Below are positions 1 through 27,183 of a stretch of 64,000 nucleotides of DNA, in pieces. The notes beneath the pieces are model-generated. The model had not been told where the DNA came from, made no database searches, and saw only the letters and a program-made list of their open reading frames with translations. A program made the position numbers and the translations under genes. The stretch is from Deltaproteobacteria bacterium (lineage in GTDB: Bacteria; Myxococcota_A; UBA9160; UBA4427): positions 140,646 through 204,645 of the forward strand of contig JAJDAN010000011.1 in the NCBI GenBank assembly GCA_029261855.1, read 5' to 3'. Position 1 is the first letter of the stretch. Every line of letters begins with the position of its first letter.

Positions 1-1172
1 TCACCGGTGAAGGCCTTCTCCGTCTGCTCGGGCAGGTTCCAGTAGCCGAGCAGCACGTTCGACCCGCGAATGCACAGCTCGCCTTCTTCGCCGTCGGCGA
101 CGGGTTGCAGGCTCGGATCGAGGACTGCGCCCTCGAGCTGCGAGCAGACCTTCCCGATCGGATACGGCACCGTGCGATCCCCGGGAACGGGCAGCTCGAC
201 CTCGTACCAGGTACAGACGTTCGTCTCCGTGGGACCGTAGAGGTTGTAGTAACGCGGCCCATGCCAGAGTTCGGTCAGGCTCCGCAGATGGCCGACCGGG
301 AACACCTCTCCGGCGAACAGCACCGCACGCAACGCGGAATAGTCCCGCGTCTCGAGCTTCCCGAACTGGCAGAGCATCGCGAGGATCGACGGCGCCGAGT
401 ACCAGACGCTGATCTTCTTGTCGGCGATGAGTTCGGCGAGGGCGACCGGCTCCTTGCCCACGTCCTCGGGAACGATCACGAGACACGCTCCGCTCGAGAG
501 CGACGTGTAGATGTCCAGGATCGACAGATCGAAGTGGAAAGGCGCGTGGGACGAGAAACGGTCCTCGGGAACGGGATGGAAGGTGTCGAGGCACCAGTCG
601 AGAAAGCTGGTCGCGTTCTCGTGGGAAAGCATGACGCCCTTGGGCTTCCCCGTGGACCCCGAGGTGTAGAGGATGTACGCGAGGCCGTCCTGGGGAACCC
701 CACGCGTCTCCGCAGCGGGCGCGGGGTCGTTCGCCTGTAGCGCGTCGAGACGGGCCGCGAGCGCGCGCCCCCCACCGGCCCCATCGAGGACGATCAACGG
801 AGGAAGACGACCGAGCGCCGACAGCTGGGCTTCGAGACCTTCCCGGTAGCAATCCTCGACGATCACGATCTCGACCTTGCAGTCGTCGAGGATGTAGGCG
901 TTGCGCGTCGGCGGTGCCGTCGGGTCGACGGGCACGTAGGCGGCGCCGGCCTTCAGGATGCCGAGGATCGAGGCGACGGTATCGATGGTCTTGTGCACGT
1001 AGAGCCCGACCCGGTCGCCGGGCGCGACTCCAGCGTGCACCAGGCGGTCGCGCATGCGATCGGAAAGGTCCGCCAGCTCGCCGTAGCGAAGGGTCGATCC
1101 GTCGGCCTCTTCGATCGCCGTGCGACGGGCGTGCTCGCTGGAGCTCTGCTCGAAGTACTCGTGCAGGTTCAT
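1..1172 (-). CDS. ANL-superfamily adenylating enzyme, DltA-like carrier-protein ligase (C-terminus lies beyond the left edge)
   Basis: Hand-translated minus frame. It has no stop in the window, so it is absent from the ORF track. N-terminus MNLHEYFEQSSSEHARRTAIEE. Adenylation core motifs LAYILYTSGSTGKPKGVMLSH, YNLYGPTETNVCT and GELCIRGSNVLLGYWNLPEQTEKAF. The ATG at 1172 lies 1 nt after the stop of the upstream carrier-protein gene. Confidence 0.85.
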   Translation of the reverse strand, partial: MNLHEYFEQSSSEHARRTAIEEADGSTLRYGELADLSDRMRDRLVHAGVAPGDRVGLYVHKTIDTVASILGILKAGAAYVPVDPTAPPTRNAYILDDCKVEIVIVEDCYREGLEAQLSALGRLPPLIVLDGAGGGRALAARLDALQANDPAPAAETRGVPQDGLAYILYTSGSTGKPKGVMLSHENATSFLDWCLDTFHPVPEDRFSSHAPFHFDLSILDIYTSLSSGACLVIVPEDVGKEPVALAELIADKKISVWYSAPSILAMLCQFGKLETRDYSALRAVLFAGEVFPVGHLRSLTELWHGPRYYNLYGPTETNVCTWYEVELPVPGDRTVPYPIGKVCSQLEGAVLDPSLQPVADGEEGELCIRGSNVLLGYWNLPEQTEKAFTG

Positions 1173-1173
1173 G

Positions 1174-1428
1174 TCAGAGCTTGGAGCAGACCAGCTTGGT
1201 GATCTCTTCGAGCGTGTTCATGTGCTCTGCGCCGACTTCGTTCGCCTCGAAGGTGACGTCGAACTGCTCTTCGAGAAAGGTGACGAGCTGCATGACGGAC
1301 ACCGAGTCGAGGATGCCCAGGGTCATCATCTCGACCGAATCGGTGAGCTCGTCGGGATCCTCCCCGGGCAGGAATTCCTCGAGGATGTAGTTCTTGATGG
1401 TGCTCTTCACTGCGTTGGGATCGGCCAT
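1174..1428 (-). CDS. Acyl/peptidyl carrier protein, DltC-like
   Basis: Taken from ORF 1174..1482. The internal ATG at 1428 (MADPNAVK) has AAGGAG 6 nt upstream. 84 aa. The phosphopantetheine Ser context is LGILDSVSVMQLVTFLEEQF. Confidence 0.85.
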   Translation of the reverse strand: MADPNAVKSTIKNYILEEFLPGEDPDELTDSVEMMTLGILDSVSVMQLVTFLEEQFDVTFEANEVGAEHMNTLEEITKLVCSKL

Positions 1429-1478
1429 GTGAATCTCCTTCAACTGTGGTTCTGGATCTGGCTTGTCTCGTGGGCGGC

Positions 1479-3392
1479 TCATTCCAGGTAGCCGAGGGCG
1501 CGAAGCCGGGATTCGAGCTCGCTACCCGTCTGCATCTGGCTCGCGTCGAGGCTGTTCGCCTCGTCGCGGTCGAGCGCCTGGTCGAGGGCAGCTTCGAGTG
1601 CGCCTTCGCGCGGGTCGCCCTGCCCCGCGAGGTTCCGTTGCTGTCCCGGATCGCGTCGCAGGTCGTACAGCTCGAAGGGCGCGAGCCGTTCCTGGTCGGT
1701 CTCGCGGGTGCGGATGAGGGTCGCGCCCTGGTTCCGGGCTGCGTCCATGTCGTTGCCCCGACTCTGCAGGGTCGAGAAGCAGAAGCCCGCCGCCTCGGCG
1801 GGCGGCGTTCCGTCACGGCCCAGGACCGGGCGACCGGTCATCTCGCCCGGAACCTCGAGCCCGGCCAGCGACAGCAAGGTCGGCGCCACATCGATCTGCT
1901 GCGTGAGGCCCGGGCGGGTGGTCCCCTTCCCGGCCCCCTTCGGCAACTTCAAGATCAGCGGAATCCGAAGCACCTCCTCGTACAAGGAGTCGCCGTGCCC
2001 CCACGCCGCGTGCTCGTAGATTTCTTCACCGTGATCGGAAGTGAAGGCGATGACGGCGTCCTCGTACAGGTCCAGCTGCCGCAAGCCGTCGACGAGACGA
2101 CCCAGATGTGCGTCCATGAACTCGATATCAGCCGTGTGACCGCGAATCAGCTGCTCCGGCGAGACCGTGTCCGCCGCCGGATGTCCCGGGTTCCCGCTCA
2201 TCGGCCTTCCCTGGACCCGGCCGCCCATGTACGGGCTGTGCGGGTCCATGTAATGGAGCAACGCGAACAGCGGTCGGTGGTCGCGGCGCTCCCGTAGTCT
2301 CTTCAACACGAGGTCGGTATACGCATCGGCCGGCTGGTAGAAATGATGAGCGTTGGCGCCCACCAGCCGCTTCGCCAAGGGCGAGATGGCCTGCCGGTAC
2401 AGGACCAGGGAAGTACCCGACCAGGGAGCCCCGAGCCAGGCGTCCGACGGTGAAAGATCGATGAAGTGCTCGAAGCCCTGATCGAAGTTCGCACCAGACG
2501 AGTTGTTCGGATTGACGTTCGAGTATCCGAGGGTCTCGTAGCCGTGGGCCGCGAAGACCTCTGCAACCGTCGTCGCCCCTTCGGGAAGCTCGGCATCCTG
2601 ATCGAGTGCCGCATGACGCCGGGGCCGCAGCCCCGTCACGATGGACGCGAAGCCGGGCTTCGTCCAGGAGCTCTGCGCGCAGTGGTCGGCGACCAGCACG
2701 CCGTCAGCCGCCAGTGCGTCGAGGGTCGGTGTCCGCGCGGGCGCGTCCCGGTCGTAGAGGTTCAGGTACCGAGCGCCCAGGGTGTCCGCGACGATCAGGA
2801 ATACGTCCGGGGAACCCGGCTTCGCGAGCGCCTCGACAGGCGCATCGACAGGGATCTCGGAGGCCGGCGTCGTGGGCGCCGGGTGTCGCAGAGCCAGGCC
2901 GAGAGCCGCGAGCCCCGACAGGATCAAGGACCCCGCGAACAGGGCGCGCGCCCCGCGCCAGCGCGCGACGGCGACGACTGCAACGGCGAGTGCGAGTCCG
3001 CAGGCGAGGCTCACGCCGACGACCAGCAAGGGGGCGGGTGCCGTCTCCCGCGACGGGGCCACGTCCATATAGAAGCGCGCGCGCCCGACCCACACACCGC
3101 ACAGCAGCAAGGCGCCTGCGAACGCAGGGACCGCGACGTCGTTGGCGTGCAGCGTCCTGCCCGTCGTTCGACCCACGACCCATGCGAGTCCTGGCATCCC
3201 CCAGGCGACCGCGAGGCCGAGGGGCGCGCACGAGAGCGCATAGGCGGTGGCCGCCCAGAGAAGGAGAGGTACCGCAGAGACGTCTGGAGCGCGCGACGAA
3301 AGCCAGCCCGCTTCGGCGACGCCGATCAGGACCCCCGCGCAGCTACCGGCGAGAACGCCTTCGAAGGACGTCCGCAGGCCGCGCGGCGGCAT
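1479..3392 (-). CDS. Polytopic membrane protein with an alkaline-phosphatase-superfamily (sulfatase-like, LtaS/EptA-type) transferase domain
   Basis: C-terminal 637 aa of ORF 1479..4223, starting at ATG 3392 (MPPRGLRTSF). Several N-terminal TM helices are followed by DVFLIVADTLG and FTSDHGEE blocks. The nucleophile position reads SSWTKPGF (Thr, no CxPxR). The ORF upstream of 3392 is Arg/Gly/Pro junk. Confidence 0.75.
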   Translation of the reverse strand: MPPRGLRTSFEGVLAGSCAGVLIGVAEAGWLSSRAPDVSAVPLLLWAATAYALSCAPLGLAVAWGMPGLAWVVGRTTGRTLHANDVAVPAFAGALLLCGVWVGRARFYMDVAPSRETAPAPLLVVGVSLACGLALAVAVVAVARWRGARALFAGSLILSGLAALGLALRHPAPTTPASEIPVDAPVEALAKPGSPDVFLIVADTLGARYLNLYDRDAPARTPTLDALAADGVLVADHCAQSSWTKPGFASIVTGLRPRRHAALDQDAELPEGATTVAEVFAAHGYETLGYSNVNPNNSSGANFDQGFEHFIDLSPSDAWLGAPWSGTSLVLYRQAISPLAKRLVGANAHHFYQPADAYTDLVLKRLRERRDHRPLFALLHYMDPHSPYMGGRVQGRPMSGNPGHPAADTVSPEQLIRGHTADIEFMDAHLGRLVDGLRQLDLYEDAVIAFTSDHGEEIYEHAAWGHGDSLYEEVLRIPLILKLPKGAGKGTTRPGLTQQIDVAPTLLSLAGLEVPGEMTGRPVLGRDGTPPAEAAGFCFSTLQSRGNDMDAARNQGATLIRTRETDQERLAPFELYDLRRDPGQQRNLAGQGDPREGALEAALDQALDRDEANSLDASQMQTGSELESRLRALGYLE

Positions 3393-3686
3393 CAGTCCAT
3401 GCAAGCGATGATCGATCGGACCCGTCCTGGCGGCTCGACGAAGCTGCTGTCGAAGGAATCGGAACTCGTCGACGTAGCGAGTCGAGCGCGCCGGTTGAGG
3501 GAGGTGCCAGGAGGGTTGGTTCGCCGCAGTCCCCGGAGGGTACACGGACGCGCGTCGTGCGCCAGGGTGCGCCGCGCACGGACCGTGACCGATCCGGCGC
3601 CTGCGCCGTACCTCACGTAGGCTCCGTCCCCCGCTCGCCCTACTCGCCCTACTCGCCAAGCCGCACGCCCCCGACACCCCGACCCC

Positions 3687-5018
3687 ATGAACCTCCGAAC
3701 CCTGCTCCCGCTGCTGTTGCTTGCGTGCACCTGGCCGACGCTGACGCGCGCGGACTGCTCGCTGACGACGATCGGCGTCTCGCCGTTGTCGGACTCTGCC
3801 GCGGGCAGCTATCTCGGACGCGCCGGGGGCCTGTATCCCGGTGGCTTCAGCACGCGCCCGGCGTCGCACGAGGCCGCGGGTCTCGCGATCGCGAGCGACA
3901 TCACGCCCCGCGACGCAGCGGGCGACCCCGACGCCGGAGGTCTCATCGTCTTCCTCTCCGTCGGGATGTCGAACACGCGGTCTGCCTTCGACGGATTCCT
4001 CGCACACTCGGAAACGGACGCCGCCCGGGATCCGCGGGTCCTCGTGGTGAACGGGGCCCAGGACTCCCGCACCGCCGAGGACTGGATGAGCCCGTCGTCC
4101 TTTACCTGGGACGTCGCGGACGGGCTCATCGACGACGCCGGCGGCACCCCGGCACAGGTGCAGGTGGCCTGGGTGAAGCTCGCGGACCGCGTCCCCAACG
4201 ACAACGGCGCCTTCCCCGACCATGCCGAGGTGTTGCAGGAAAGGATCGAGGAAGTGTCACGCAGCCTTCGCGTCCGCTACCCCAACCTCCGGATCGCGTG
4301 GTTCTCGAGCCGCACCCGCGCCTACACCGACGATGCGGACCTGCTCAACCCCGAGCCCTTCGCGTTCGAGAGCGGATTCGCCGTCCACTGGATGCTGGAC
4401 AAGCAGCTGGCGGGAGACCCCGCCCTCAACTTCGATCCCGGGGCGGGCCCGGTCATGGCCCCGCTGCTGTCCTGGGGCCCGTATCTCTGGATCGACGGGC
4501 TCGAGGTCCGGTCCGACGGCATGCAGTGGCTTTGCAACGACGTCAGCGCCAGCGATTTCATCCACCCCTCGAACAACGGGGTCGCGAAGGTCGGGGCCCA
4601 GCTGCAAGCCTTCTTCAAGACCGACCCGCTTGCCCGAAGCTGGTACCTGCGTGCGAACGAGACCGGTAGCCCGCCCACCTGCGACGCCACCGCCTCTCCG
4701 ACCCGGGGACCGGCGCCGCTCACCGTCTCGTTCAACGCCAACGCCGGCGACAGCGACGGAACCCTCGTCGAGCACGCCTGGAACTTCGCCGACGGCACGG
4801 GCTCTCTCGCGAGCGCGCCCAGCAAGGTCTTCCACGCCGAGGACAACTACACCACCCACCTCACCGTCAGCGACGACGATGGCAACACGGCTCGGTGCTC
4901 GGTGGTCATCCAGGTCCCGGAGACCCGGGACCTCACCCTCGGCACGGCCGCCCTGCTCTCCCTGGCGCTGCTTTCGACCGGCCTGGCGCAGAGTAGGCCG
5001 CGACCGCACAGACGCTAG
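3687..5018 (+). CDS. Secreted PKD-domain protein with a PEP-CTERM-type C-terminal sorting signal
   Basis: Signal peptide [22 protein letters not shown]. The GMSNT block resembles GQSNM esterases. PKD segment [29 protein letters not shown]...[20 protein letters not shown]. Tail [34 protein letters not shown]. Confidence 0.75.
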
Positions 5019-5046
5019 GATCGAGCGGACCCGCGACGAGGACTCC

Positions 5047-5559
5047 GTGAGCTACAGCTACTTCTGCCATCCCCAGGCGCTCGTCGAGAGCGCCCACATC
5101 GGACCGGACACCCGCATCTGGGCCTTCGCGCACGTGCTGCCGGGTGCGCACATCGGAGCGGCCTGCAACATCTGCGACCACGTGTTCATCGAGAACGACG
5201 TGGTGATCGGCGACCGCGTCACGATCAAGAACGGGGTGCAGATCTGGGACGGCATGATCCTCGAGGACGATGTCTTCGTCGGTCCGAACGCGACCTTCAG
5301 CAACGACCCGTGGCCACGCAGCGGCAAGCGCCCGACGGACTGGCCGCGGCTGACCGTGAAGCGCGGCGCGTCCATCGGAGCCAACGCGACCCTGCTGCCG
5401 GGCATCACGATCGGTGAGCGAGCGATGGTGGGAGCCGGCGCCGTCGTGACCCGGTCCGTCGAGGCCGGGGCGGTGGTCGTCGGAAACCCGGCCCGTGTGG
5501 TGCGCTACGCCGACGAGGGCGGCGAGGGCGAAGGCGATAGAGGGGGAGAAGGCGACTGA
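5047..5559 (+). CDS. Left-handed beta-helix (hexapeptide-repeat) sugar N-acyl/acetyltransferase
   Basis: C-terminal 170 aa of ORF 4222..5559 from GTG 5047, with GAGGA upstream. Sequence [36 protein letters not shown] followed by repeated [LIV]G hexapeptides. The upstream part of the ORF is junk. Confidence 0.8.
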
Positions 5560-7004
5560 ACGCCCACCGGCGGGCCCGCCGCGCGCATCCCGGCGCGCGG
5601 CAACAACCCCGACCGCTGGAAGGTGTCCTCGATCAGTGCGCGAACGGCGGGCTCGCGCACGAAGGTGAGATGACCGCCCTGGTACCACGCGATGGGCGGG
5701 CTTCCCCAATGCTCGTGCAGATCGCGTACCTGGTCCGGCGGGACCAGGCGGTCCGCCACACCACCGAAGATGGCGCGGCCTTCGGGTGCGACCTTCGGCT
5801 CGAGGACCAGCGGCGAGATCGGGCGGAACACCTGTGAGAAGAGCTCGCGGGTCAGACCCCGATCGTGCAACTCGCGAAGCTGGGTTTCATGCGAGTGCTC
5901 GTAGAGCAATCCCTCGAAGCTCGTCGCCGGAATCCCGGGAATCGCGCACAGCAGGTCCTCGTCGAGGGAGGCCAGCAACGCGGTGTTGTAGCCACCGAGC
6001 GACAGCCCGAGCACACCGATGCCGTAAGGGTCCTGAGCGCGGATCCACGACAACAGCCGGCGCATGTCCCACATGGCCTGGGCCTCGGCATGGACCGAGT
6101 CCAGCGCGTTCGCCCCGAGGAAGCCATCGCCGCTTCGTCGCCCCATCTTGCGCTCGCCGTGGAGCGGCAGCACCGGCAGCAGCATGTTCAGCCCGAGCTT
6201 GCGGTGATACAGCCGAGGGTCGAATGCCCCGAGGTCGACGAGCGGCGACCCCATCTGGTAGCCGTGGACGCAGACCAGCCAGGGACGCGGCGCCCCGGGA
6301 TGGCGGAGCACCCACGCATGGGCGGTGCGGTTCTTCGTGTAGCCGAGCCACCGGTCGCGGCCGGGTTCTTCGGCGTGAGGCTCGTACTCGCTGTCGAAGC
6401 TGAGGTGCTCGAACGCGATGCCGCGGGACCGCGCGGGACGAATGCGCGGCGCATCCAGGGACAGAGGCACGCGGTGGTAGCTCTCGGGCTTGTCGAGCCA
6501 CCCCCGGGCGCCGAACAGCTCGACCGCCTGCAAGGTTTCGACCCGGACGCGGTCTGCGCGCTCGCCGCGCGGAAGCGTGCGAGTCACGTTCATCGTGGAC
6601 AGGATCGCCTCGTCGGCGGCGACCTTCGCCGCCATCGCGGCCCCCCCGCGAACGGGCGGTACCCGCTCGAACGGCGCGAGCCCGCGAAGTGAGAGCTGCC
6701 CGGCGGCCAGGAAGGATGCCGCGGACAGCAAACCCAGTACGACGGCCGGTAGGAAGCCCACGAGCAGGATGGCGGGCAGCGACAGGATCACACCCGCGGC
6801 CGATCCGAGCGCGCAGAACTGCAGCATGCGGCGGTCCTCGGACCACAACAGCTCGCCGGCGCCGGTGGCGACCAACAGGACGCCGGGCACCAGCGCCAGG
6901 ACCAACGCCAGCATCCCCGTCGTGGCGCCGATCCCCAGCCAGCAAAGCCCAGCGAGCATCGGGATCCAGGCCTCGTGAGATCGCCTGCCTTCCTGATCCA
7001 TCAC
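5505..7004 (-). CDS. Membrane-anchored alpha/beta-fold hydrolase
   Basis: ORF 5505..7004. About 4 N-terminal TM helices. Nucleophile elbow GLSLGG. HGYQMG oxyanion-type block. Ser/Pro-rich tail. Confidence 0.8.
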
Positions 7005-7075
7005 ACATCAACCTCCACGCGCATGCGAGAGCACCGCCGCAGGATAACAACACCGACGCGGCGGGACCGAGTAGA

Positions 7076-9490
7076 ATGCGGGCCATGGCTTTCGCAAGGT
7101 GGATGGCCTCCGCCCTCGAGAACGAGCCGTCCTGGCCTGACGCGGGATCGCGCCGCGTCGTGCTGCTGCTCGACGCGTCGAGCAGCATCGAGCGTCGGCT
7201 GCTCGACGCCTGGGTGGAGCGCGCCCGCCCGGATCCCGGCGCTGGCAGCCGCGCGAACGCGATCCCGATCCCGCCCTCGCGTCGGCGGCGGTCCGGACGA
7301 CGACTCGACCCTCGGCTGGAAGACGCTCTTGCTTCCGACGATGATCCGCTGCTCGCTCCCCTGCGCGTGGTGTGGCTGCCCGAGCTCGTGGACGGCCGAC
7401 GCGTCGCACGCCTGTCGGACCTGTTGAAGCTCGGCGACCCACGCGACCCCGGCGTCCTGCGGCAGTTCGGCGTGCTGGTGCGGAGACGCGACCGCTGCCG
7501 CATCGTGGCCGGCGAGCCCGCGCGAGCTTCAGAGCTGCGCGCGCGCTGGCGTGAGGCGGGCGGCGCCGATGCCGGACAGACCGGCGGCCTCGCAGAGTTC
7601 GTGTCGCGCATGGCCGCGCTCGCCCTCGAGCGCGCCGAGCGAGCCCTGCGCGGGGCGCGCTACAAGGTTCCTCGCCTCGTGCACGAGGAGATCCTCGACC
7701 GTCCCGCCTTCCGGGGCGGACTGCAGAAGATCGCGAACGAGGAAGACATCTCGCTGTCGCGCGCCAGCAAGAACGCCGGGCGCTACCTGGGAGAGATCGC
7801 CGCTGCGCACAGCCACCTGCTCATCGACCTCGCCTCCGTCCTGATCCGCAAGATCTACACCCGCAGCTACAGCGAAGAGCTTCAGTACGACCGGGAGAAG
7901 CTCGCCGGGATCGCGACCTTGTCCCAGCGTCACCCGGTCGTGTTCCTGCCGACCCACAAGTCCAACCTCGACCATCTGGTGCTTCAGTACATGCTGTACG
8001 AGCACGAACTGCCTCCGAATCACACGGCCGGCGGCATCAACATGAACTTCTTCCCGCTCGGCCAGTTGGTGCGCCGCAGCGGCGTGTTCTTCATCCGTCG
8101 CACCTTCAAGGACAACCCGGTCTACAAGCACGTGCTTCGCAGCTACATCGACTACCTGATCGAGAAGCGCTTCAACCTCGAGTGGTACATCGAGGGGGGA
8201 CGCTCCCGCAGCGGCAAGCTGCTGCCTCCGCGCTTCGGACTGCTCGCCTACGTGGTAGACGCCTTCCGGCGCGGCAAGAGCGACGACGTCTACCTGATCC
8301 CCGTGTCCATCGCGTACGACCTGATCCAGGACGTCGGCTCGTATTCCGCCGAAGCCCAGGGCGGCGCCAAGCAGCAGGAAAGCTTCGGCTGGTTCGTGAA
8401 CTTCATCCGGGGCTTCCGGCAGAAGTCCGGCGAGATCCACATTCGCTTCGGAGACCCGGTTTCCCTGCGCGAGCAACTCGGGCCGCCCGACCCCGGCCGC
8501 CAGCCCGAGCCGGACGAGGAAGAGCTGACGCTTCAGAAGCTCGCCTTCGAGGTGTCGGTGCGGATCAATCAAGTCACGCCGATCACGCCGACTTCACTCG
8601 TGACCCTCGCACTGCTCGGCTGGGGCGACCGCGCGGTGACCGTGTCGGAAGTGCGGGCGAGCATGACGAACCTGCTCGACACCGTGGAGGAGCGAAAGCG
8701 TCCGGCGACCCGCGCGCTCGAACCCCTGCGCCGCGACGCGGGCGTCAAGTCGACCCTCGACGCGCTCGTCGAGTGCAAGGTCGTCAACTGCTACGCAGCC
8801 GGGCCCGAAGCCGTCTACGTGATCGACCGCGGGCAGGAGCTGACCGCCGCCTACTACAGAAACACCGTGATCCATTTCTTCATCACGAGCGGGATCTGCG
8901 AGCTGGCCCTGCTGAGAGCCGCCGAGGTGCGCCCGAGCGATGGCGATCCCGTCGCGTCCTTCCTCGACGAGACCATGGGGCTGCGCGATCTGTTCAAGTT
9001 CGAGTTCTTCTTCGCAGAGAAGGAGGCCTTCCGCGCCGAGATCCGCGACGAGATGCAGTTGCAGGACCCGCGCTGGGAAGAGCTGCTCGAAGAGGGCCCC
9101 GAGGCGATCCACAGCCTCGTCCAACGGATGCGCCCCTTCAGCTCGCATCGCACCCTGCGCCCGTTCCTCGAGAGCTACCAGGTGGTCGCCGAAAACCTCA
9201 CCCGATGGGACGTCGACGCCGAGCTCTCGGAGACGCGCTTCCTGGACGAGTGCCTCGCTCTGGGTCGTCAGCGCCTGTTGCAACGCCGCATCCACAGCGG
9301 CTCGTCGGTCTCGAAGGTGCTGTTCCAGACCGCGCTCAAGCTGGCGCGAAACCGCGGGCTGGTGGACCCGGGCTCGCCGGGACTCGCCGAGCGGCGCGAA
9401 GAGTTCGCGGTCGAGATCCGTGACGCGCTGCGGCGCGCCGAAGCGATCGCCGCGCTGGCGGCGAGCCGACGCACGGGCCTGATCCCGTAA
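7076..9490 (+). CDS. plsB: Glycerol-3-phosphate acyltransferase
   Basis: In-frame ATG 7076 within ORF 6689..9490. HX4D acyltransferase motif PTHKSNLDHLVL. Also FFIRRTF and EGGRSRSGKLLPP blocks. About 800 aa, which is PlsB-sized. Confidence 0.85.
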   Translation: MRAMAFARWMASALENEPSWPDAGSRRVVLLLDASSSIERRLLDAWVERARPDPGAGSRANAIPIPPSRRRRSGRRLDPRLEDALASDDDPLLAPLRVVWLPELVDGRRVARLSDLLKLGDPRDPGVLRQFGVLVRRRDRCRIVAGEPARASELRARWREAGGADAGQTGGLAEFVSRMAALALERAERALRGARYKVPRLVHEEILDRPAFRGGLQKIANEEDISLSRASKNAGRYLGEIAAAHSHLLIDLASVLIRKIYTRSYSEELQYDREKLAGIATLSQRHPVVFLPTHKSNLDHLVLQYMLYEHELPPNHTAGGINMNFFPLGQLVRRSGVFFIRRTFKDNPVYKHVLRSYIDYLIEKRFNLEWYIEGGRSRSGKLLPPRFGLLAYVVDAFRRGKSDDVYLIPVSIAYDLIQDVGSYSAEAQGGAKQQESFGWFVNFIRGFRQKSGEIHIRFGDPVSLREQLGPPDPGRQPEPDEEELTLQKLAFEVSVRINQVTPITPTSLVTLALLGWGDRAVTVSEVRASMTNLLDTVEERKRPATRALEPLRRDAGVKSTLDALVECKVVNCYAAGPEAVYVIDRGQELTAAYYRNTVIHFFITSGICELALLRAAEVRPSDGDPVASFLDETMGLRDLFKFEFFFAEKEAFRAEIRDEMQLQDPRWEELLEEGPEAIHSLVQRMRPFSSHRTLRPFLESYQVVAENLTRWDVDAELSETRFLDECLALGRQRLLQRRIHSGSSVSKVLFQTALKLARNRGLVDPGSPGLAERREEFAVEIRDALRRAEAIAALAASRRTGLIP

Positions 9491-9652
9491 GGCGCTCCGC
9501 CCGGACCCGAAGCAGCGGTTCCAAAAGAGGAAGCGGACTTCCCACCCGGGCCCCCGGGCCCGACACCGAGCGGTTTCTCGCGTGAGCAGCTTCCGCGTGC
9601 AAGCCCGGGCGCGCGCAACGGCTTCCTGCGCGTCCCGCCGCAGGGGGGTGGC

Positions 9653-9668
9653 TGGCAAGGCGCTTGCA
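9653..9668 (+). promoter_or_regulatory. Candidate sigma-54 (RpoN) -24/-12 promoter
   Basis: TGGCAAGGCGCTTGCA matches TGGCAC-N5-TTGCA with correct GG/GC spacing. It lies 62 nt upstream of the ATG at 9730, inside a 239-bp intergenic region. Confidence 0.45.
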
Positions 9669-9729
9669 ACCCTCTTGGCCAGAGTCGGCGACTGCTTCGG
9701 GAAGGGCGATCGGCGATTCCGGAGGTTGG

Positions 9730-10941
9730 ATGCAGATTCGCCTGGCGACCCTGAACGTGTGGGCTCTTCCGGAGCCCATCGGGCGGGACGTACAGGTTCG
9801 AATCGACGCCATCGGAGCGCGTCTCCCGGACCTCGGATTGGATGTCGTCGCCTTCCAGGAAGTGTGGACGCGAGACGCCGCGGCCCGACTGCTTCGAGCC
9901 GGCGAGCGCGCTGGGCTCGTTCACGGCTGGTACGGGGACGGCACCTTCGGCAAGGGCGGACTGCTGGTGCTGTCGCGGCTGCCCATCGAAGAGGTGCACT
10001 TCGAGGCCTACTCGGTCACCGGAGCGGCGGAGAAGGCCGCGAACCTCGAGTACCTGAGCGGCAAGGGCTTCGCGACGGTCCGGCTCGAGACGCCCAGCGG
10101 CCCGCTGGTACTCGTCACCACCCACCTCCACGCGCGCTATTCGAGCAGCGCTCCGCACCGGCACGTCCCTCAGCGTACGGGGCAGGCCGTGCAGCTGGCG
10201 ACGCGCTTCGCGGACAGTCGCGAACCCATCGTCGCGCTCGGCGACTTCAACTTCCGCGAAGGCGAGACCGACTACCGCGTCCTGACGGACATCCTCGGCC
10301 TGCAGGACGTCGCTGCGCTGCTGGACGAGCGCCAGAACACGACGCTGCACACCAGCCCCTACCGCAACCCGACTGGGGTCGATCGGCGCAAGGACTTCAT
10401 CTTCGTGCGAAGCGGCGCCAACCACGCGCTGCTCCCGAAGTCGATCCGGCGCAGCTTCGACGAGATCTTCGAGATCGCCGGCGCACCCGGCTCCTATTCG
10501 AACCACGCGGGCCTGGTGACCGAGATCGAGTTGGTCGAACTGGCATCCGCGGCAGTGAACCACGCCCCGCTCTCCGCCGATGCGGACCCGGGCGTCTTCG
10601 AGGCGGCCGCACGCATGCTCGCCAAGGGCGAGCGCCTGGCCCGGGCGCGCCAGGACGGTGGCCGCGCTGCATCCGGCATCGGGCTCGGCATCGCCGCCAT
10701 CGCCACCCTCGGCGCGATGCCGAAACGAATGAGCCGACGCCGACTGCTGCGCGCCGGCCTTGCGACAGGCGCCCTGGCCGCACTCGCGCCGAGCCTCGGC
10801 TTCTCGATCGCGTCCGAAGTGCTCGTGCCCGACGAGATCCGCGCCTTCCGCGACGCCGCGAGGCAGCTTGCGGCCCTGGCCCCCGACGCCCTGCCCCCCG
10901 AAGCACAGCTGCCCTCGGTGGCGTCCGGCCCGCCGGCCTAG
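9730..10941 (+). CDS. Endonuclease/exonuclease/phosphatase (EEP) family protein, neutral-sphingomyelinase-like, with a C-terminal membrane anchor
   Basis: ATG 9730 with GGAGG 4 nt upstream, in frame within ORF 9664..10941. Motifs LATLNVWALP, VVAFQEVW, GDFNF and YSNHAGL. Two hydrophobic helices lie near the C-terminus. Confidence 0.8.
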   Translation: MQIRLATLNVWALPEPIGRDVQVRIDAIGARLPDLGLDVVAFQEVWTRDAAARLLRAGERAGLVHGWYGDGTFGKGGLLVLSRLPIEEVHFEAYSVTGAAEKAANLEYLSGKGFATVRLETPSGPLVLVTTHLHARYSSSAPHRHVPQRTGQAVQLATRFADSREPIVALGDFNFREGETDYRVLTDILGLQDVAALLDERQNTTLHTSPYRNPTGVDRRKDFIFVRSGANHALLPKSIRRSFDEIFEIAGAPGSYSNHAGLVTEIELVELASAAVNHAPLSADADPGVFEAAARMLAKGERLARARQDGGRAASGIGLGIAAIATLGAMPKRMSRRRLLRAGLATGALAALAPSLGFSIASEVLVPDEIRAFRDAARQLAALAPDALPPEAQLPSVASGPPA

Positions 10942-15373: not shown

Positions 15374-15439
15374 CGACCTACCGGTCTTGCGGCTCGTCTA
15401 TTTTCGTCTTAGTTTCGCTTTTTTGAGGATGAACCCCCG

Positions 15440-16567
15440 GTGACCAGCTCCCCCAGCCTCCCCCAGACGCCCGTCCTCAAGGGCCGCGGCGCCGCCGAGA
15501 ACCCGGCCAACCGATTCGAACGACTTTCCTATGTCGAAGAGGGGGTCGAAGAGGGGGTCGAAGAGAAGGTCGAAGAGCCCGGAGACGATGCAGACGCGGG
15601 GGTGCCGCCCGCCCCGCTGACCCCGACCGTGTACTTGCGCGACCCCACCCGCACGGCGCTCGCGACGAACAACAGCCCCGACATCCAGTTCGACACCAGC
15701 TTGAATCCGTATCGGGGGTGCGAGCACGGCTGCGCCTATTGCTATGCGCGTCCCACGCACGAATTCCTGGGCTTCTCGTCCGGGCTCGACTTCGAGACGC
15801 GCATCCTCGTGAAGGAGGACGCCCCCGAGCTGCTGCGACGCGAGCTGTCGTCGAAACGCTGGAAGCCCCAGGTCGTCGGCATGAGCGGCGTGACGGACCC
15901 CTACCAGCCGATCGAGCGCCGGTTGGGCATCACGCGCCGCTGTCTCCGGGTCTTTGCCGACTTCCGCAATCCGGTTCAGATCATCACGAAGAACGCCCTC
16001 GTCGTTCGCGACATCGACCTGCTGTCCGAGCTCGCCGGCCACGATGCGGTTTCGGTCGCCGTGTCCATCACGACCCTCGACCCGGGCCTTCATCGCAGCA
16101 TGGAGCCGCGGGCCTCCCATCCGGAACAGCGTCTGCGGGCGATCGCAGCCCTCGCCGAGGCGGGCGTCCCGGTGGGCGTCATGGCGGCACCCATCATCCC
16201 CGGTCTCACGGACCACGAGCTGCCCGAGATCCTCGCTCGCGCACGGGCAGCCGGCGCAGGCTTCGCGGGCCACATCGTGCTGCGACTACCGGGCAATGTG
16301 AAGGAACTGTTCTCGGCCTGGTTGGATCGGCATCACCCGGACCGAAAGCAGAAGGTCCTGAACCGACTGCGTGCGCTGCGCGGTGGAAAGCTGGACGACC
16401 CGCGCTTCGGCACGCGCATGAAGGGCAGCGGCGTCTACGCGGACCAGATCCACGGCCTGTTCGATCTGGCCTACCGCAGGGCGGGTTTTTGTCCCGCCGC
16501 AAGCGCCCCGAGCCTCTCGACTGCCGCCTTCCGAACGCCGGGAGACGCCCAGCTTCAGCTGTTCTAG
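15440..16567 (+). CDS. Radical SAM protein (PA0069 / DNA-photolyase-like family)
   Basis: ORF 15440..16567 (GTG start). CxxxCxxC cluster CEHGCAYCY. Also SGVTDPYQP. The N-terminal region has an in-frame VEEG repeat. Confidence 0.85.
   Translation: MTSSPSLPQTPVLKGRGAAENPANRFERLSYVEEGVEEGVEEKVEEPGDDADAGVPPAPLTPTVYLRDPTRTALATNNSPDIQFDTSLNPYRGCEHGCAYCYARPTHEFLGFSSGLDFETRILVKEDAPELLRRELSSKRWKPQVVGMSGVTDPYQPIERRLGITRRCLRVFADFRNPVQIITKNALVVRDIDLLSELAGHDAVSVAVSITTLDPGLHRSMEPRASHPEQRLRAIAALAEAGVPVGVMAAPIIPGLTDHELPEILARARAAGAGFAGHIVLRLPGNVKELFSAWLDRHHPDRKQKVLNRLRALRGGKLDDPRFGTRMKGSGVYADQIHGLFDLAYRRAGFCPAASAPSLSTAAFRTPGDAQLQLF
15533..15577. repeat. 12-bp in-frame tandem repeat (x3.75) in the radical SAM gene
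   Basis: gtcgaagagggg gtcgaagagggg gtcgaagagaag gtcgaagag encodes VEEG VEEG VEEK VEE. Confidence 0.9.
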
Positions 16568-16585: not shown

Positions 16586-18805
16586 TCAGCGCCGGTTCAG
16601 CGCCGTGCGGACCTTCTCGGCGAGGATGGCCTGGGTGAAGGGCTTCTCGACCAACTCGGCGCCGGGCGCGAGACGCCGCGTCGGCCCGAGGGCGTTCTCG
16701 GTGTAGCCCGACGTGAACAGCACCGGCAGACCCGGGCGCTTGCTCTGTACGCGCCTCGCCAGCTGCGCCCCGCTGGTGCCACCGGGCAGGACGACGTCGG
16801 TGAAGACCAGCGCGAGGTTCGGCACGCGTTCGACCAGCGCGACGGCGGCGTCGCCGTCCGCCGCCTCGATGGTCTTGTAGCCGATGCGTTCGAGCAACGT
16901 GACGGTGAGACTGCGAACGTCTTCGTCGTCCTCCACCACCAGGATCAGCTCGCCGCTTCCCCGCGGCCCTTCGGCCGTGTCGGCACCCATCTCCGCCCCC
17001 GCGCGACCGGGTGCGCTGTCTCGCGCGCGTTCGACGCGCCGCTCCCGCTCGACGCGCGGCAGATACAGGCGCACACAGCTTCCGCGATCGGGCTCGCTCT
17101 CGATTTCAACGCTACCTCCCGACTGCCGGACGAAGCCGTAGACCATGCTGAGCCCGAGCCCGCTCCCGTGCCCCAGTCCCTTGGTGGTAAAGAAGGGCTC
17201 GAAGGCGTGCTCGAGCACGTTTGGGTCCATTCCCGCGCCGCTGTCGGTGATGGACAGCACGACATAGGGGCCGGGCTCGAGCCCGTCGTGATGACGCGCG
17301 AACTCCTCGCCCACCTCTCGATTCGCGGTCTCGATGACCAGGCGGCCCCCACCGGGCATGGCGTCCCGCGCGTTGATCGCGAGGTTGAGGATGACGTTCT
17401 CGAGCTGCGCCGGATCGACCTCGCACTCCCAGAGGTCCTCCGCGAGGCGCGATTCGACCTCGACAGTCTCGCCGAGAGTCCGGTTCAGCAGGTCGTCCAT
17501 ACCGGCGACCAGCTCGCCAAGGTCGAGGACCCGGGGCTGCAGCGCCTGCTTGCGCGCGAAGGCCAGCAATCGATGGGTGAGCGCGGCACCCCGGTGGGCC
17601 GCGGCGCGGGCGTTCTCGACGAAGCGAAGGGACGCGTCTCCCGGCGCCAGGCCACTCGCCACCAGCTGCAGGTTGCCGAGAACGACAGTCAGCAGGTTGT
17701 TGAAGTCGTGGGCGACACCCCCGGTCAGCTGCCCGACTGCTTCCAGCTTCTGGGCCTGGAGCAACTGCTCTTCGAGGTCGAGGCGCTCGCTCATGTCGCT
17801 CGAGACCACGATCACCCGGTCGACGCTTCCGTCCTCGACCACGGGCCCCACGCGACTCGAGTACCAGACGCGGCCTCGGTTCTCGATCTCGACCTGAACG
17901 TCGTACGACACGGGCTCGCCGTCGCGAAAGACCCGATCGATGGCATCGCTCACCCGTTCGGCGTGATCGGGCGCGACCAGGTCCTCGGCGCGAATGCCTG
18001 TGGGGTTCGGCGTCAGCCGCCGCCCCCCGCGCAGCTGGTGGTTGGCGAAGGTGACCCGGTGATCGCGGTCCACGATGGCGATGCTGTCCGGCGCATGCTC
18101 GACCAGCGAGTGGAACTGGGCCTCGAGTGAGGTCTTCTCGAACTCGGCCCGGTTGCGCTCGCTGCGCGCAGACGTAGCCGCGGCGAGCGCCTCACGCGTC
18201 TCCTTCAAGCTGGCGGTGAGACGGTCGACCACCAGATAGACGCCGAAGGCGAGCATGCCGCTGAAGGCCGCGTAGGCCATGGCCACCCGGAGGGCCACAC
18301 TCAGGTTGTGCGGATCCACGCGAGCCGGGTCGAATGTCGACTCGATGAGGCCCTGGTCGAGCGCGAGAGACCCGACGATCAGGATCGCCGTGGACGCCGC
18401 CCAGGTCGCGGCCGCCCAGCGGCGTCCCAGCAGCAGACCGGCCAGCCCGACGGCCAGCAGCGCCAACAGGATCGTCCCGACCACGTAGCCGTATCCGATA
18501 ACGCCCAGGAATTCGAGCGACAGCAGGCACACGAGGAAGGTCAAGACCCGCAGTTGATAGTTCGCGCCGCGCCAGGCAGCCGTCGCCAGCATCGCGAGCG
18601 GCGCGAACAGGACGAGTCCATCGCGCACGGGGTGCGCGTCCAGGCTCAGCTCGCGCGCTCCAAAGAGCAGCATCAGGCCGAGGATCACCGCGGCGGAAGC
18701 GCTCAGGCGATCGAAAATGCGGGCGCGCCACGGCTCGGAACGAAGATCGTCCACGACTCCGCCTGCTGCGCGATCGTTCTCGGGTCGGTTTCCGGAATCG
18801 GTCAC
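16586..18805 (-). CDS. Hybrid sensor histidine kinase / response regulator (multi-TM, PAS, HisKA, HATPase, REC)
   Basis: ORF 16586..19057, with a likely GTG start at 18805. H-box VAHDFNNLLTVV. ATPase blocks NLAINARDAM and GSGLGLSMV. C-terminal receiver LVVEDDEDV...FTDVVLPGG. Confidence 0.85.
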   Translation of the reverse strand: MTDSGNRPENDRAAGGVVDDLRSEPWRARIFDRLSASAAVILGLMLLFGARELSLDAHPVRDGLVLFAPLAMLATAAWRGANYQLRVLTFLVCLLSLEFLGVIGYGYVVGTILLALLAVGLAGLLLGRRWAAATWAASTAILIVGSLALDQGLIESTFDPARVDPHNLSVALRVAMAYAAFSGMLAFGVYLVVDRLTASLKETREALAAATSARSERNRAEFEKTSLEAQFHSLVEHAPDSIAIVDRDHRVTFANHQLRGGRRLTPNPTGIRAEDLVAPDHAERVSDAIDRVFRDGEPVSYDVQVEIENRGRVWYSSRVGPVVEDGSVDRVIVVSSDMSERLDLEEQLLQAQKLEAVGQLTGGVAHDFNNLLTVVLGNLQLVASGLAPGDASLRFVENARAAAHRGAALTHRLLAFARKQALQPRVLDLGELVAGMDDLLNRTLGETVEVESRLAEDLWECEVDPAQLENVILNLAINARDAMPGGGRLVIETANREVGEEFARHHDGLEPGPYVVLSITDSGAGMDPNVLEHAFEPFFTTKGLGHGSGLGLSMVYGFVRQSGGSVEIESEPDRGSCVRLYLPRVERERRVERARDSAPGRAGAEMGADTAEGPRGSGELILVVEDDEDVRSLTVTLLERIGYKTIEAADGDAAVALVERVPNLALVFTDVVLPGGTSGAQLARRVQSKRPGLPVLFTSGYTENALGPTRRLAPGAELVEKPFTQAILAEKVRTALNRR

Positions 18806-19040
18806 GGAACCTTCGACTTCCTCCAGCTCGACTCTCCCCGCTCGACTCTCCCGCTCGACTCCCCAGCGACTGCCCTCCGAGCCGCTTCCGCATGGAAGCG
18901 CGCTTCGCGTGGGACCACAAACGCCGGACCGGGGCGACGCCCCAGGGGCTCCGTCGGCTAGGAGCGTGACCCAAGGCGTAGCCCTGGGACGCGACGACGC
19001 AAACGGAGCCCACCGGGCTCCGTCGGCTAGGCTTCCCGCC

Positions 19041-19508
19041 ATGCTCAACGACCCCACTCGCGAACTGATCGCCCGCCAGCAGATCAGCGACTTGATCCAC
19101 GAGTACTGCGTGCGCGTCGACCGCTACGAGCCCGACGGCGTCGCCGAAATCTTCTTCGAGGACTGCATCGTCGACTACGGACCCACGCTCGGTGGGCCCG
19201 AGACCGGCCGAGCACCCCTCGCCGCGAAACTCCGACGCGGGCTCGCGAACTTCGAGGCGACGCACCACCAGGTCTCGAACATCCAGCTGCGCTTCGACTC
19301 GCCCGACCGCGCCACAGGCATCAGCTACGTCCGAGCCTGGCACGGCGGAAAGGGAAACGCCCCCGACTTCACTGTCTACGGCCAGTACCACGACGTCTTC
19401 GAACGCCGCCAGGGTCACTGGGGCTTCGCCGCAAGAACGATCCTCGTAGCAGGCCACAACGGCCCCCCAATCGACTGGATCCCCACGCCGCGAACGAAAA
19501 CCCCATAG
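19041..19508 (+). CDS. SnoaL-like / NTF2-fold protein
   Basis: ATG 19041 in frame within ORF 18717..19508. Sequence MLNDPTRELIARQQISDLIHEYCVRVDRYEPDGVAEIFFEDC. The upstream part of the ORF is junk. Confidence 0.7.
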   Translation: MLNDPTRELIARQQISDLIHEYCVRVDRYEPDGVAEIFFEDCIVDYGPTLGGPETGRAPLAAKLRRGLANFEATHHQVSNIQLRFDSPDRATGISYVRAWHGGKGNAPDFTVYGQYHDVFERRQGHWGFAARTILVAGHNGPPIDWIPTPRTKTP

Positions 19509-19783: not shown

Positions 19784-20860
19784 CTACCAGCCGGCCATGG
19801 TCGCTGCGCGCTCCCGGTGCAACGCCGGATTCCCCAGAAACGCGCGATCGAACATGGCTCGCTTGAACCAGATCTGGACGTCGCATTCCCAGGTGAAGCC
19901 GATCCCGCCGTGCGCTTCGACGGCGTCCCGGGCGATCTGCATGTAGCGATCGGTGATGTGGGCCTTGGCGATGGCGGCGGTGCGTTCCGCCTCGTCGCGA
20001 ACGTGGTCCAGGGCGTGTGCCGCGTACCAGTAGAGGCCACGCGACGGCTCGATTTCCACCGCCATGTTCGCGAGCTGATGCTTCAGGGCCTGGAAGTGGC
20101 CGATGGTGACGCCGAACTGCTCGCGGGTCTTCGCGTACTCGACGCTCATCTCCACCAGCCGCGTCGCGCCACCGAAGGCGTCCGCCGCCAGCAGCACCAG
20201 CGCGGCGTCTCGCAGCCGCGTGGCCGCGACTTCGCCGTCGGGCAGCGCTTCCGCCGGCGTGTCCGCCAGGATCACCTCGCACAGCCGTCGCGTGCGATCC
20301 GCACTGTCGATGGGCTTGATTTCCAGCCCCTTGGCATCGCGCTCGACCAGGGCGAGCCCGCCACCCGCCGTACCGACGACGATCAGATCGGCATGGTCGG
20401 CGAAGATCACGTGCTTCTTGCTGCCGGAAAGGGAGGCGCCGGCCGGAACGGACCACTGGTCGGGCAGCCAGGCGCCGCCCTCTTCCGCCAGTGCCACCGT
20501 GGCCAGCGCGTCGCCCGTCGCGAGCTTCGGGAGCCACTTGCTCTTCTGGGCATCGCTGCCACCGCAGGCGATGGCGAGGCCCGCGAGCGCATGTCCCAGG
20601 AACGGCCCGGGTGCGGCCATGTAGCCCAGGGTCTCGGACACGAGGGCGAGATCGAGGACCTCGAGGCCGGCTCCACCGTATTCCTCGGGCAGGTGCAGGC
20701 CCGCGAGTCCCATCTCGGCCATGCCCTTCCACAGCGCGGGGTCGAAGCCGACTTCGCCGTCGAAGATCTCGCGCAGGGTCGTCGCCGGACATTCGTTGTC
20801 GAGAAACTGCCGGACGGTCTCCTGCAGCATCTCCTGCTCTTCCGAGAGGTCGAAGTTCAC
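19784..20860 (-). CDS. Acyl-CoA dehydrogenase family protein (short, possible beta-type subunit)
   Basis: ORF 19784..20860. N-terminus MNFDLSEEQEMLQETVRQFL. Also REQFGVTIGHFQALKH and GGIGFTWE. Confidence 0.85.
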   Translation of the reverse strand: MNFDLSEEQEMLQETVRQFLDNECPATTLREIFDGEVGFDPALWKGMAEMGLAGLHLPEEYGGAGLEVLDLALVSETLGYMAAPGPFLGHALAGLAIACGGSDAQKSKWLPKLATGDALATVALAEEGGAWLPDQWSVPAGASLSGSKKHVIFADHADLIVVGTAGGGLALVERDAKGLEIKPIDSADRTRRLCEVILADTPAEALPDGEVAATRLRDAALVLLAADAFGGATRLVEMSVEYAKTREQFGVTIGHFQALKHQLANMAVEIEPSRGLYWYAAHALDHVRDEAERTAAIAKAHITDRYMQIARDAVEAHGGIGFTWECDVQIWFKRAMFDRAFLGNPALHRERAATMAGW

Positions 20861-22068: not shown

Positions 22069-22161
22069 CGGGGTCCTCTCCTGGCAGCGCGCGGCCCGGT
22101 GGCCGCTGCGCCCGTGGCAAGTCGGAGGGAGAGGTTAGATCCCCGAACTAGATGAGTCCAG

Positions 22162-24348: not shown

Positions 24349-24353
<5 letters not shown>
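24334..24353. terminator. 20-bp perfect palindrome between convergent genes, overlapping the sucA stop
   Basis: gctgacgcgcgcgcgtcagc is its own reverse complement. The sucA stop codon (24349-24351) lies inside it. Confidence 0.45.

Positions 24354-27183
<2,830 letters not shown>

Follow-up and report, generated by a model that had tools for sequence, protein, structure and literature searches.

In the D-alanylation (Dlt) system of Firmicutes (DltA, DltC, DltB, DltX and DltD), an adenylating ligase loads a small stand-alone carrier protein and, as in the PatA/PatB system, a tyrosine on a short motif at the outer face of the membrane carries the acyl group from the MBOAT protein to the serine of the SGNH protein (PMC12148441). 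According to the same mechanistic paper of 2025, the MBOAT/SGNH pathways other than Dlt have no carrier protein. PatA/PatB, AlgI/AlgJ/AlgX and the AT3-SGNH enzymes (OatA, OafA) draw on acetyl-CoA; in them an SGNH domain receives its acyl group from a membrane acyltransferase and forms an ester on a periplasmic or extracellular polymer (PMC12148441). Here we analyse a 64,000-nucleotide stretch (hereafter the window) of contig JAJDAN010000011.1 (assembly GCA_029261855.1, positions 140,646 to 204,645 of the forward strand) from a Deltaproteobacteria bacterium, at whose left edge lies part of a four-gene cassette encoding a ligase, a carrier protein, a protein of the acyl-CoA dehydrogenase family and a predicted fusion of MBOAT and SGNH domains. 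We propose that this module turns proline into a carrier-bound pyrrole acyl group and hands it, by a Dlt-like transfer, to an acceptor outside the cytoplasm, here probably the adjoining polysaccharide; we regard this as the probable, though by no means assured, function.

Proline loading and oxidation to pyrrole are established for PltF/PltL/PltE and for the Pig and Red enzymes, that is, for type II nonribosomal peptide synthetase (NRPS) cassettes (PltF/PltL/PltE for pyoluteorin, PigI/PigG/PigA for prodigiosin, RedM/RedO/RedW) made of a prolyl ligase, a carrier and an oxidase of the acyl-CoA dehydrogenase family. Carrier-dependent decoration of a diderm envelope molecule is also known, since the AlmE/AlmF/AlmG system modifies the lipid A of Vibrio cholerae with glycine by means of a DltA-like ligase and a carrier; AlmG is, however, a cytoplasmic-face enzyme of the lysophospholipid acyltransferase family and not a MBOAT-SGNH protein, and the pathway uses glycine and has no dehydrogenase.

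The cassette shares with Dlt an adenylating ligase paired with a small stand-alone carrier, a membrane partner with the predicted DltB (MBOAT) fold and a DltD-like SGNH domain, and an invariant tyrosine between the two domains, whose place may correspond to that of the shuttle tyrosine of DltX or PatA. It departs from Dlt in the PltF-type pocket of its ligase, in scores below the DltA and DltC cut-offs, in the addition of a flavin dehydrogenase, in the fusion of the MBOAT and SGNH parts within 848 amino acids with no need of DltX, and in its hosts, which are mostly diderms of many phyla. With the pyrrole cassettes it has in common the same three kinds of protein, PltF being the best solved match of the ligase and PigA and RedW the best models for the dehydrogenase, as well as flavin halogenases in some loci. 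Unlike them, it has no polyketide synthase, NRPS or condensation enzyme downstream and encodes a transmembrane MBOAT-SGNH protein instead, its dehydrogenase falls under the equivalog cut-offs, and its context is often glycan biosynthesis. The joining of a membrane domain to an SGNH domain recalls OatA, whereas the dedicated carrier and ligase, almost always adjacent, set the module apart from the acetyl-CoA-dependent systems. Both halves of the module are of known kinds and their combination is apparently undescribed: we found no curated model and no paper describing the four genes together in a literature search of incomplete coverage, mostly without subscription journals.

Ligase and carrier protein

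At the left end of the window, three minus-strand open reading frames (ORFs) had been called in an earlier reading made from the letters alone (hereafter the sequence-only reading), and the sequence together with Pfam matches bore out all three: a ligase gene (positions 1..1172), of which the window holds the first 390 codons (AMP-binding, 292 bits) and the remainder lies off the window; a carrier gene (1174..1428; 84 amino acids; PP-binding, 27 bits against a cut-off of 20.8); and a sulfatase-like gene (1479..3392; 637 amino acids). One base lies between the carrier stop codon (TGA, 1176-1174) and the ligase ATG (1172-1170), as had been noted, and the carrier ATG is preceded by GGAG 7 nucleotides (nt) upstream. 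The tight coupling claimed for all three genes held for the carrier and the ligase and failed at the junction of the sulfatase-like and carrier genes, where a 50-nt spacer (1429..1478, minus strand) holds the ribosome-binding site of the carrier.

The 390 ligase codons of the window are identical to residues 1-390 of a 514-residue protein (P0001), which at full length matched the amino-acid adenylation model TIGR01733 with 371 bits against a cut-off of 317.4, the only model whose cut-off it passes (the 390-residue fragment alone gave 294 bits); no NCBIfam model names the ligase specifically. Its best single-domain match in the PDB was PltF (6o6e, 365 bits), other adenylation domains scoring 200-238 bits and DltA 216; LgrA stands above PltF in that ranking because the scores of two LgrA domains are summed. 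Moreover, the pocket segments FDLSxLD, WYSxPS, LFAGE and NLxGPTETNVC are identical to those of PltF 6o6e in the alignment, and they are invariant or nearly so among relatives (106-120 of 120). Prediction of the substrate from the adenylation pocket, a check proposed by the sequence-only reading, gave a proline-type enzyme, and we take the ligase, on this sequence comparison, to be a putative stand-alone amino-acid adenylation enzyme of the PltF (L-proline) type. Its suggested likeness to the AMP-ligases of exosortase loci found no support: the model of the exosortase-A-associated ligase, TIGR03098, reached 249 bits against a cut-off of 592.35. No exosortase gene was seen among the window ORFs sampled.

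The carrier, with its phosphopantetheine site at the serine of GILDSVS, found its best PDB matches among type II peptidyl carrier proteins (PCPs; 2my5 at 36.7 bits, PltL at 33.6), and scored 27 bits against DltC and at most 16 against the acyl carrier proteins (ACPs) of fatty acid synthase (FAS). Its nearest curated family was NF052616, ACP_for_OlsHI, an ornithine-lipid ACP family (104.9 bits against a cut-off of 130, unmet); a Pseudothauera homolog of the carrier (locus L002, 9738-9995) came to 115.8 bits on the same model, also under the cut-off. A paper on OlsH and OlsI reports that OlsH works without an ACP (PMC12493201).

These scores bear on two other accounts of the pair. Were this a true Dlt system in a diderm, the ligase would activate D-alanine and the carrier would be a DltC ortholog. 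The DltA and DltC models do match significantly, the membrane partner described below is closest in fold to DltB, and the annotation at the Joint Genome Institute (JGI) names that partner DltB. The scores nevertheless stay far under the cut-offs, both for DltA (TIGR01734, 275.4 against 559.85 bits; NF003417, 284.4 against 476) and for DltC (NF003464, 29 against 68; TIGR01688, 19 against 52.35), and the ligase that the sequence-only reading had called DltA-like is closer to PltF by the PDB scores given above and has a pocket identical to that of the proline enzyme. A dehydrogenase of the prolyl-carrier type, absent from Dlt systems, is in addition a near-constant partner of the pair, and we consider D-alanylation extremely unlikely. 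To the second account, in which a fatty-acyl-CoA/ACP ligase and a FAS-type ACP supply lipid synthesis beside the gene for the glycerol-3-phosphate acyltransferase PlsB, we assign an almost negligible probability. It draws on scores of 280 bits with models of long-chain-fatty-acid-CoA ligases and on PlsB and other lipid genes no more than 10 kb away, but the cut-offs of those ligase models begin at 476 bits, and conservation beside the cassette was seen for none of the PlsB, alpha/beta-hydrolase and EEP genes, the search of related loci having covered the alpha/beta-hydrolase. The sequence-only reading had allowed for the ligase to group with fatty-acyl-CoA ligases and the carrier with FAS ACPs; neither occurred, the amino-acid adenylation model being the sole one passed and type II PCPs the nearest relatives of the carrier.

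Dehydrogenase, membrane partner and conservation of the cassette

That the operon runs past the left edge of the window, as had been supposed, was confirmed on a contig (L087) from the same sample as a shorter contig (L001) that carries the identical carrier. L087 begins with residues 421-514 of P0001, an exact match in its partial first ORF, and continues with a dehydrogenase gene (L087:287-1432) and then the gene for an 848-residue protein, P0132. Since pieces of the identical P0001 lie on both the window and L087, the gene order is sulfatase-like protein, carrier, ligase, dehydrogenase and 848-residue protein, and the spacers between carrier and ligase, ligase and dehydrogenase, and dehydrogenase and 848-residue gene measure 1, 0 and 1 nt, respectively. 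Further downstream on L087 follow genes for a DUF2334 protein, glycosyltransferases (GTs) of the GT2, GT4 and GT1 types, a 731-residue oxidoreductase-epimerase fusion and a 481-residue protein with a weak Wzy_C match.

The dehydrogenase has 381 amino acids and belongs to the acyl-CoA dehydrogenase family. The prolyl-carrier dehydrogenases PigA and RedW are its best models by more than 100 bits over any other, whereas the two ordinary acyl-CoA dehydrogenases of the window reached 86-112 bits on the same two models.

P0132 gave a predicted structure with a mean confidence (pLDDT) of 88 and a predicted template-modelling score (pTM) of 0.80, built on 42 homologs. The top fold matches were DltB (8jem and 6bug, E 3e-7 to 1e-6), followed over the membrane part by HHAT, PORCN, DGAT1 and MBOAT7 (MBOAT-type matches at E 3e-7 to 1e-4), and the C-terminal domain of the model matched SGNH esterase folds. 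P0132 is thus modelled as a fusion of a MBOAT domain of DltB-like fold with a DltD-like SGNH domain. The MBOAT assignment was made on the predicted fold because sequence profiles miss MBOAT, and the SGNH part is also visible to Lipase_GDSL_2, which matches 24 of 27 family members (best E 5e-10); JGI annotates many members as DltB or AlgI, and no NCBIfam model covers the protein. Invariant in the 42 members are N302, H345, G535-Y536-Y537, S621, D815 and H817. Two of these belong to MBOAT-part motifs, WRRxNIYWKDF (N302) and, about 40 residues on, TWxLHxYQ (H345, a candidate for the catalytic histidine of MBOAT enzymes), and others to the SGNH part, with block I LG(S/A)S around the invariant S621 and block V WDxHPN. 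The invariant G-Y-Y-E falls in residues 535-553, a linker modelled with low confidence that joins the last helices to the SGNH domain. The sequence-only reading could neither confirm nor exclude a DltB/MBOAT or DltD partner beyond the edge; such a partner exists as this MBOAT-SGNH fusion, two genes past the edge, and the ligase and carrier do follow the Dlt logic ascribed to them.

Conservation was assessed by a scan of species-representative genomes, which gave 393 stretches with a ligase relative; the best 80 were kept (52-63% identity), of which 46 had enough flanking sequence for synteny counts. Beside the ligase, the carrier was found in all 46, the PigA-like dehydrogenase in 44, the MBOAT-SGNH protein in 41 and all three together in 39, the commonest gene order being MBOAT-SGNH, carrier, ligase and dehydrogenase. 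The two closest relatives of the ligase (about 70% identity; L083 and L085) have the order carrier, ligase, dehydrogenase and MBOAT-SGNH, with unrelated genes upstream. Look-ups that started from two MBOAT-SGNH proteins (L094 and L095) again found the carrier and the ligase adjacent, and the MBOAT-SGNH family as a whole comprises 892 representatives (50% clustering, E<=1e-30). The hosts are mostly diderms and include Myxococcota, Alpha-, Beta- and Gammaproteobacteria, Acidobacteriota, Gemmatimonadota, Planctomycetota and Verrucomicrobiota, besides Chloroflexota, Nitrospirota, Krumholzibacteriia, Latescibacterota, KSB1, Binatia, Lentisphaeria and Spirochaetaceae.

In seven loci, one homology cluster adjoins the cassette with one or two genes per locus (L010, 6754-9549; L037, 3-2183; L051, 13244-15912; L052, 11568-12188; L064, 8553-9902; L067, 3312-6628; L073, 12901-14304). 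The three members tested (L064, L010 and L073) are flavin halogenases of the Trp_halogenase family, that of L064 with a recognisable WxWxIP motif, which suggests that halogenated pyrrole variants exist. Genes of glycan synthesis recur as well: the Microvirga loci hold, from our reading of the sequence, GT1, sugar transferase and Wzc-like genes, and glycan genes also lie near the cassette in L094 and L095.

Some loci depart from the single-copy layout. Two or three tandem MBOAT-SGNH paralogs occur in some loci of Planctomycetota and Gemmatimonadota (L052, 1132-9969; L050, 13107-18828; L037, 4034-9027; L057, 8141-13331), and L052 has two carrier genes. Two further neighbour clusters were seen in Gemmatimonadota loci, whose tested members are a bifunctional 3'-phosphoadenosine 5'-phosphosulfate (PAPS) synthase and a phosphodiesterase-family protein (PF01663). 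In L094, from an acidobacterium, the genes for MBOAT-SGNH, carrier and ligase lie within a sugar-nucleotide/glycosyltransferase cluster (6001-10368).

The sulfatase-like gene and the surroundings of the cassette

The sequence-only reading had joined the ligase and the carrier with the sulfatase-like gene at 1479-3392, on the minus strand, taken as an LtaS/EptA-like membrane transferase. Its product (P0241) matches the Pfam Sulfatase profile (PF00884) with 147 bits over positions 1-300 of 301, essentially the full profile, and its predicted structure, with a pLDDT of 88, begins with five helices within residues 4-169. S1 sulfatases, choline sulfatase and phosphonate monoester hydrolases make up the 50 best fold matches, which include neither LtaS nor EptA, and the LtaS and EptA models gave 19.5 against 970 and 17.8 against 561 bits, so that the assignment to these transferases was not sustained; what the protein shares with them is the architecture of five helices and an outward domain of the alkaline phosphatase superfamily, together with a Thr nucleophile. 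That threonine was read correctly from the letters: it lies in SSWTKPGF, is invariant as T244 in 37 homologs along with D203, D453 and H454, and belongs to a family motif, T-K-P-G/S-F, that replaces C/S-x-P-x-R. With no C/S-x-P-x-R motif, formylglycine cannot form. The protein is therefore like the S1 formylglycine sulfatases in sequence and fold and unlike them in this motif, and the Thr nucleophile and the Asp/Asp-His metal ligands suggest that it catalyses phosphoryl-type transfer or hydrolysis and does not use formylglycine sulfatase chemistry.

Beside the cassette, the gene is not conserved. No ortholog was found in the 80 loci, three of which gave matches of only 28-31% identity; the one checked, in L050, is a protein of the phosphodiesterase type (PF01663). 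The co-occurrence expected of the three genes was thus seen for the ligase and carrier, and for the sulfatase-like gene it was not, since none of the 46 informative loci and neither of the two closest ligase relatives has an ortholog. Its homologs come in two forms, one of about 640 amino acids, mostly in Myxococcota, and one of about 1000 with an N-terminal LPG_synthase_TM domain (PF03706, MprF-flippase-like). Those in L088 and L089 sit in Wzx/GT clusters, and in L089, which has no carrier or ligase cassette, the gene (41% identity) stands amid orthologs, at 63-75% identity, of five L087 genes, namely the GT2, GT4 and GT1 genes, the 731-residue fusion and the 481-residue Wzy-like gene. On the simplest reading, the sulfatase-like gene belongs to a Wzy-type polysaccharide cluster, inside which the cassette has been placed in this genome. 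The ligase/carrier stretch (1-1500) has a G+C content of 0.62-0.66, slightly lower than the 0.69-0.71 of most 500-base bins next to it (1501-8000) and the 0.684 of the whole window, which fits horizontal acquisition of the cassette and is no proof of it.

It is very unlikely, in our judgement, that the ligase, the carrier and the sulfatase-like protein form one system in which the last serves as acyl transferase. The three genes share a strand and the gap before the carrier gene is only 50 nt, with no terminator or promoter pattern in it (1429-1478) by a pattern scan that is uninformative on this point, and co-transcription of the sulfatase-like and carrier genes is plausible. A membrane-anchored protein with a Thr nucleophile would also suit such a role, and genes of the alkaline phosphatase superfamily do lie near a few cassettes (an Alk_phosphatase gene in L085 and a cluster in five Gemmatimonadota loci, represented in L050 by the PF01663 Phosphodiest protein). 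Against this, synteny largely refutes the idea: orthologs of the sulfatase-like gene are missing beside related cassettes and occur in polysaccharide clusters without carrier or ligase. The five helices and the positive-inside rule should moreover put the catalytic domain in the periplasm, beyond a cytoplasmic carrier; the chemistry of the alkaline phosphatase superfamily is phosphoryl or sulfuryl transfer and not acyl transfer; and the operon already encodes a dedicated MBOAT-SGNH acyltransferase. The merit of the locus lies in the four-gene cassette and not in the three-gene combination flagged at first.

Several observations concern the sulfatase-like family itself. The contig of the closest homolog (L088, 52% identity) ends 60 nt past the stop codon, with no ribosome-binding site or ATG visible there; at the far end of that polysaccharide cluster (L088, 1-1668) lie a gene of the AurF family (diiron N-oxygenase-like) and a different AMP-binding gene of 532 residues. 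In L091, a gene of the form of about 1000 residues adjoins genes for a sulfotransferase, a GT2-methyltransferase fusion, a PKD protein and a GT9 protein. No curated family was found for the Thr-nucleophile sulfatase-like proteins (homologs P0254-P0345), and these sulfatase-fold membrane proteins, some of them fused to MprF-type flippases, form an uncharacterised family worth study.

Divergent from the trio and of contextual value only, two plus-strand genes follow. The first (3687..5018) encodes a protein with one PKD domain (PKD_4, 49.8 bits), an N-terminal hydrophobic leader that by eye resembles a signal peptide, and a hydrophobic and basic C-terminal tail (VPETRD...RPRPHRR). It had been labelled a PEP-CTERM cargo protein, a label without support here: PEP-CTERM models matched neither the whole protein nor its last 59 residues at E<=1, and the motif reads PET and not PEP. 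There was also no NCBIfam match and no homolog in related loci, and recurrence of such a protein beside sulfatase-like genes was dropped, the L091 PKD protein having only the PKD repeat in common. The second gene (5047..5559) does encode a hexapeptide acyltransferase, as had been read (Hexapep, 82.6 bits; left-handed beta-helix), which resembles sugar N/O-acetyltransferases (NeuD/PglB/VioB family, 99 bits against a cut-off of 160.8).

Beyond them lie three genes that may be related to lipid metabolism. The product of 5505-7004 (minus strand) is a 499-residue alpha/beta-hydrolase whose N-terminus is hydrophobic and which matches ABHD18 weakly; it was considered as an OlsI-like partner of an OlsHI-type carrier and rejected, its sole NCBIfam match being a weak one to RcgR, and no homolog was found in related loci. 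The gene at 7076-9490 (plus strand) encodes the glycerol-3-phosphate 1-O-acyltransferase PlsB (NF002886, 886 bits, over the cut-off of 721), and that at 9664-10941 (plus strand) a 425-residue protein whose sole match is a weak one to a sphingomyelin phosphodiesterase model (25 bits, with the cut-off at 248). Elsewhere in the window, the genes sampled (15413-16567, 16586-19123, 19784-22134 and 24349-27204) look housekeeping or regulatory and encode a radical SAM protein of the PA0069 family (452 bits, over its cut-off), a hybrid histidine kinase, the two ordinary acyl-CoA dehydrogenases and a 2-oxoglutarate dehydrogenase E1 component.

Proposed pathway and its acceptor

The pathway proposed here builds on gene content, order and conservation, on family and fold assignments and on the identity of the ligase pocket, all of which are shown; its substrate, pyrrole product, topology, tyrosine shuttle and acceptor are inferred. 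In the cytoplasm, the ligase would load L-proline onto the phosphopantetheine arm of the carrier, as the PltF-PltL pair does (PMC7723355). The dehydrogenase would then oxidise the prolyl-S-carrier to a pyrrole-2-carboxyl-S-carrier, as in pyoluteorin and prodigiosin biosynthesis, and in some relatives a flavin halogenase would halogenate the carrier-bound pyrrole. The charged carrier would dock on the MBOAT domain from the cytoplasmic side, like DltC on DltB, and the acyl group would cross the membrane, perhaps by way of the invariant GYYE tyrosine of the linker, to the serine of the outward-facing SGNH domain. This domain would esterify an extracytoplasmic acceptor, here probably the polysaccharide of the Wzy-type cluster, of which the sulfatase-like protein would be a separate periplasmic enzyme.

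A number of points weigh against this pathway. The function of every member of the module is predicted from comparison and from models. Contiguity of L087 with the window rests on the identical protein, and about 30 codons of the ligase are covered by neither piece. The dehydrogenase falls under the equivalog cut-offs of both PigA (NF053553, 451.3 against 500 bits) and RedW (NF045652, 434.3 against 650); it stands as a sister group beside the proven enzymes and might stop at pyrroline or act differently. In the membrane partner, Pfam MBOAT matched none of 27 family members at E<=10, a profile search of PDB sequences found the SGNH part only, and weakly, and the TM-scores of the fold matches are modest (0.54-0.63 against the target). 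The SGNH block V has the spacing D-x-H where D-x-x-H is usual, and GYYE is off the FxYxxF consensus of the DltX/PatA shuttle, although its tyrosine is at the expected place. In L094 the genes called up to 6 kb from the MBOAT-SGNH gene, in both directions, included none for a dehydrogenase, and this locus is possibly a variant that transfers an unoxidised aminoacyl group. Finally, many loci have no glycan genes nearby, and therefore the acceptor may differ between organisms.

This last point opens the way to a reading with the same pyrrole or halopyrrole chemistry in which the acceptor is a membrane lipid or a lipoprotein, or the product a small secreted pyrrole ester. To our knowledge, all known PltF/PltL/PltE-type cassettes feed small molecules, and genes of the halogenase family stand beside the cassette in seven loci. 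L002, L083 and L085 are among the many loci without glycosyltransferases nearby, and in L085 the downstream genes encode an MMPL transporter and a polyketide-cyclase-like protein; eukaryotic MBOAT proteins acylate lipids and proteins, and HHAT, PORCN and DGAT1 appear among the fold matches. The closest fold, however, is that of DltB, a setting among glycan genes is repeated in L087, L094, L095 and the Microvirga loci, and the characterised bacterial MBOAT/SGNH pairs acylate envelope polymers (PMC12148441). On balance we find such an acceptor unlikely and prefer transfer to a polysaccharide in this organism. For the family at large we put forward, tentatively and as a possibility short of the probable, a widespread Dlt-like pathway of diderms that esterifies surface polysaccharides or other envelope molecules with proline-derived pyrrole-2-carboxylate, sometimes halogenated.

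If this holds, the cassette would represent a new kind of envelope modification, in which a carrier-dependent MBOAT-SGNH transacylase would for the first time be seen to draw on the pyrrole chemistry of type II NRPS systems. It would be the second carrier-dependent MBOAT/SGNH pathway after the Dlt system of Gram-positive bacteria, with an acyl group that is aromatic and derived from proline. Recognition of the module would stop genome mining from miscalling it as orphan NRPS-like clusters, and cultured carriers of the module exist (Microvirga, Pseudothauera rhizosphaerae and Steroidobacter flavus), which makes the proposal directly testable. It would predict a new chemical decoration of the cell surface in the wastewater genera Accumulibacter and Thauera and in Microvirga, a genus known for root-nodule symbionts, with possible effects on the charge, hydrophobicity and ultraviolet absorbance of these surfaces and on their recognition by phages or by immune systems.

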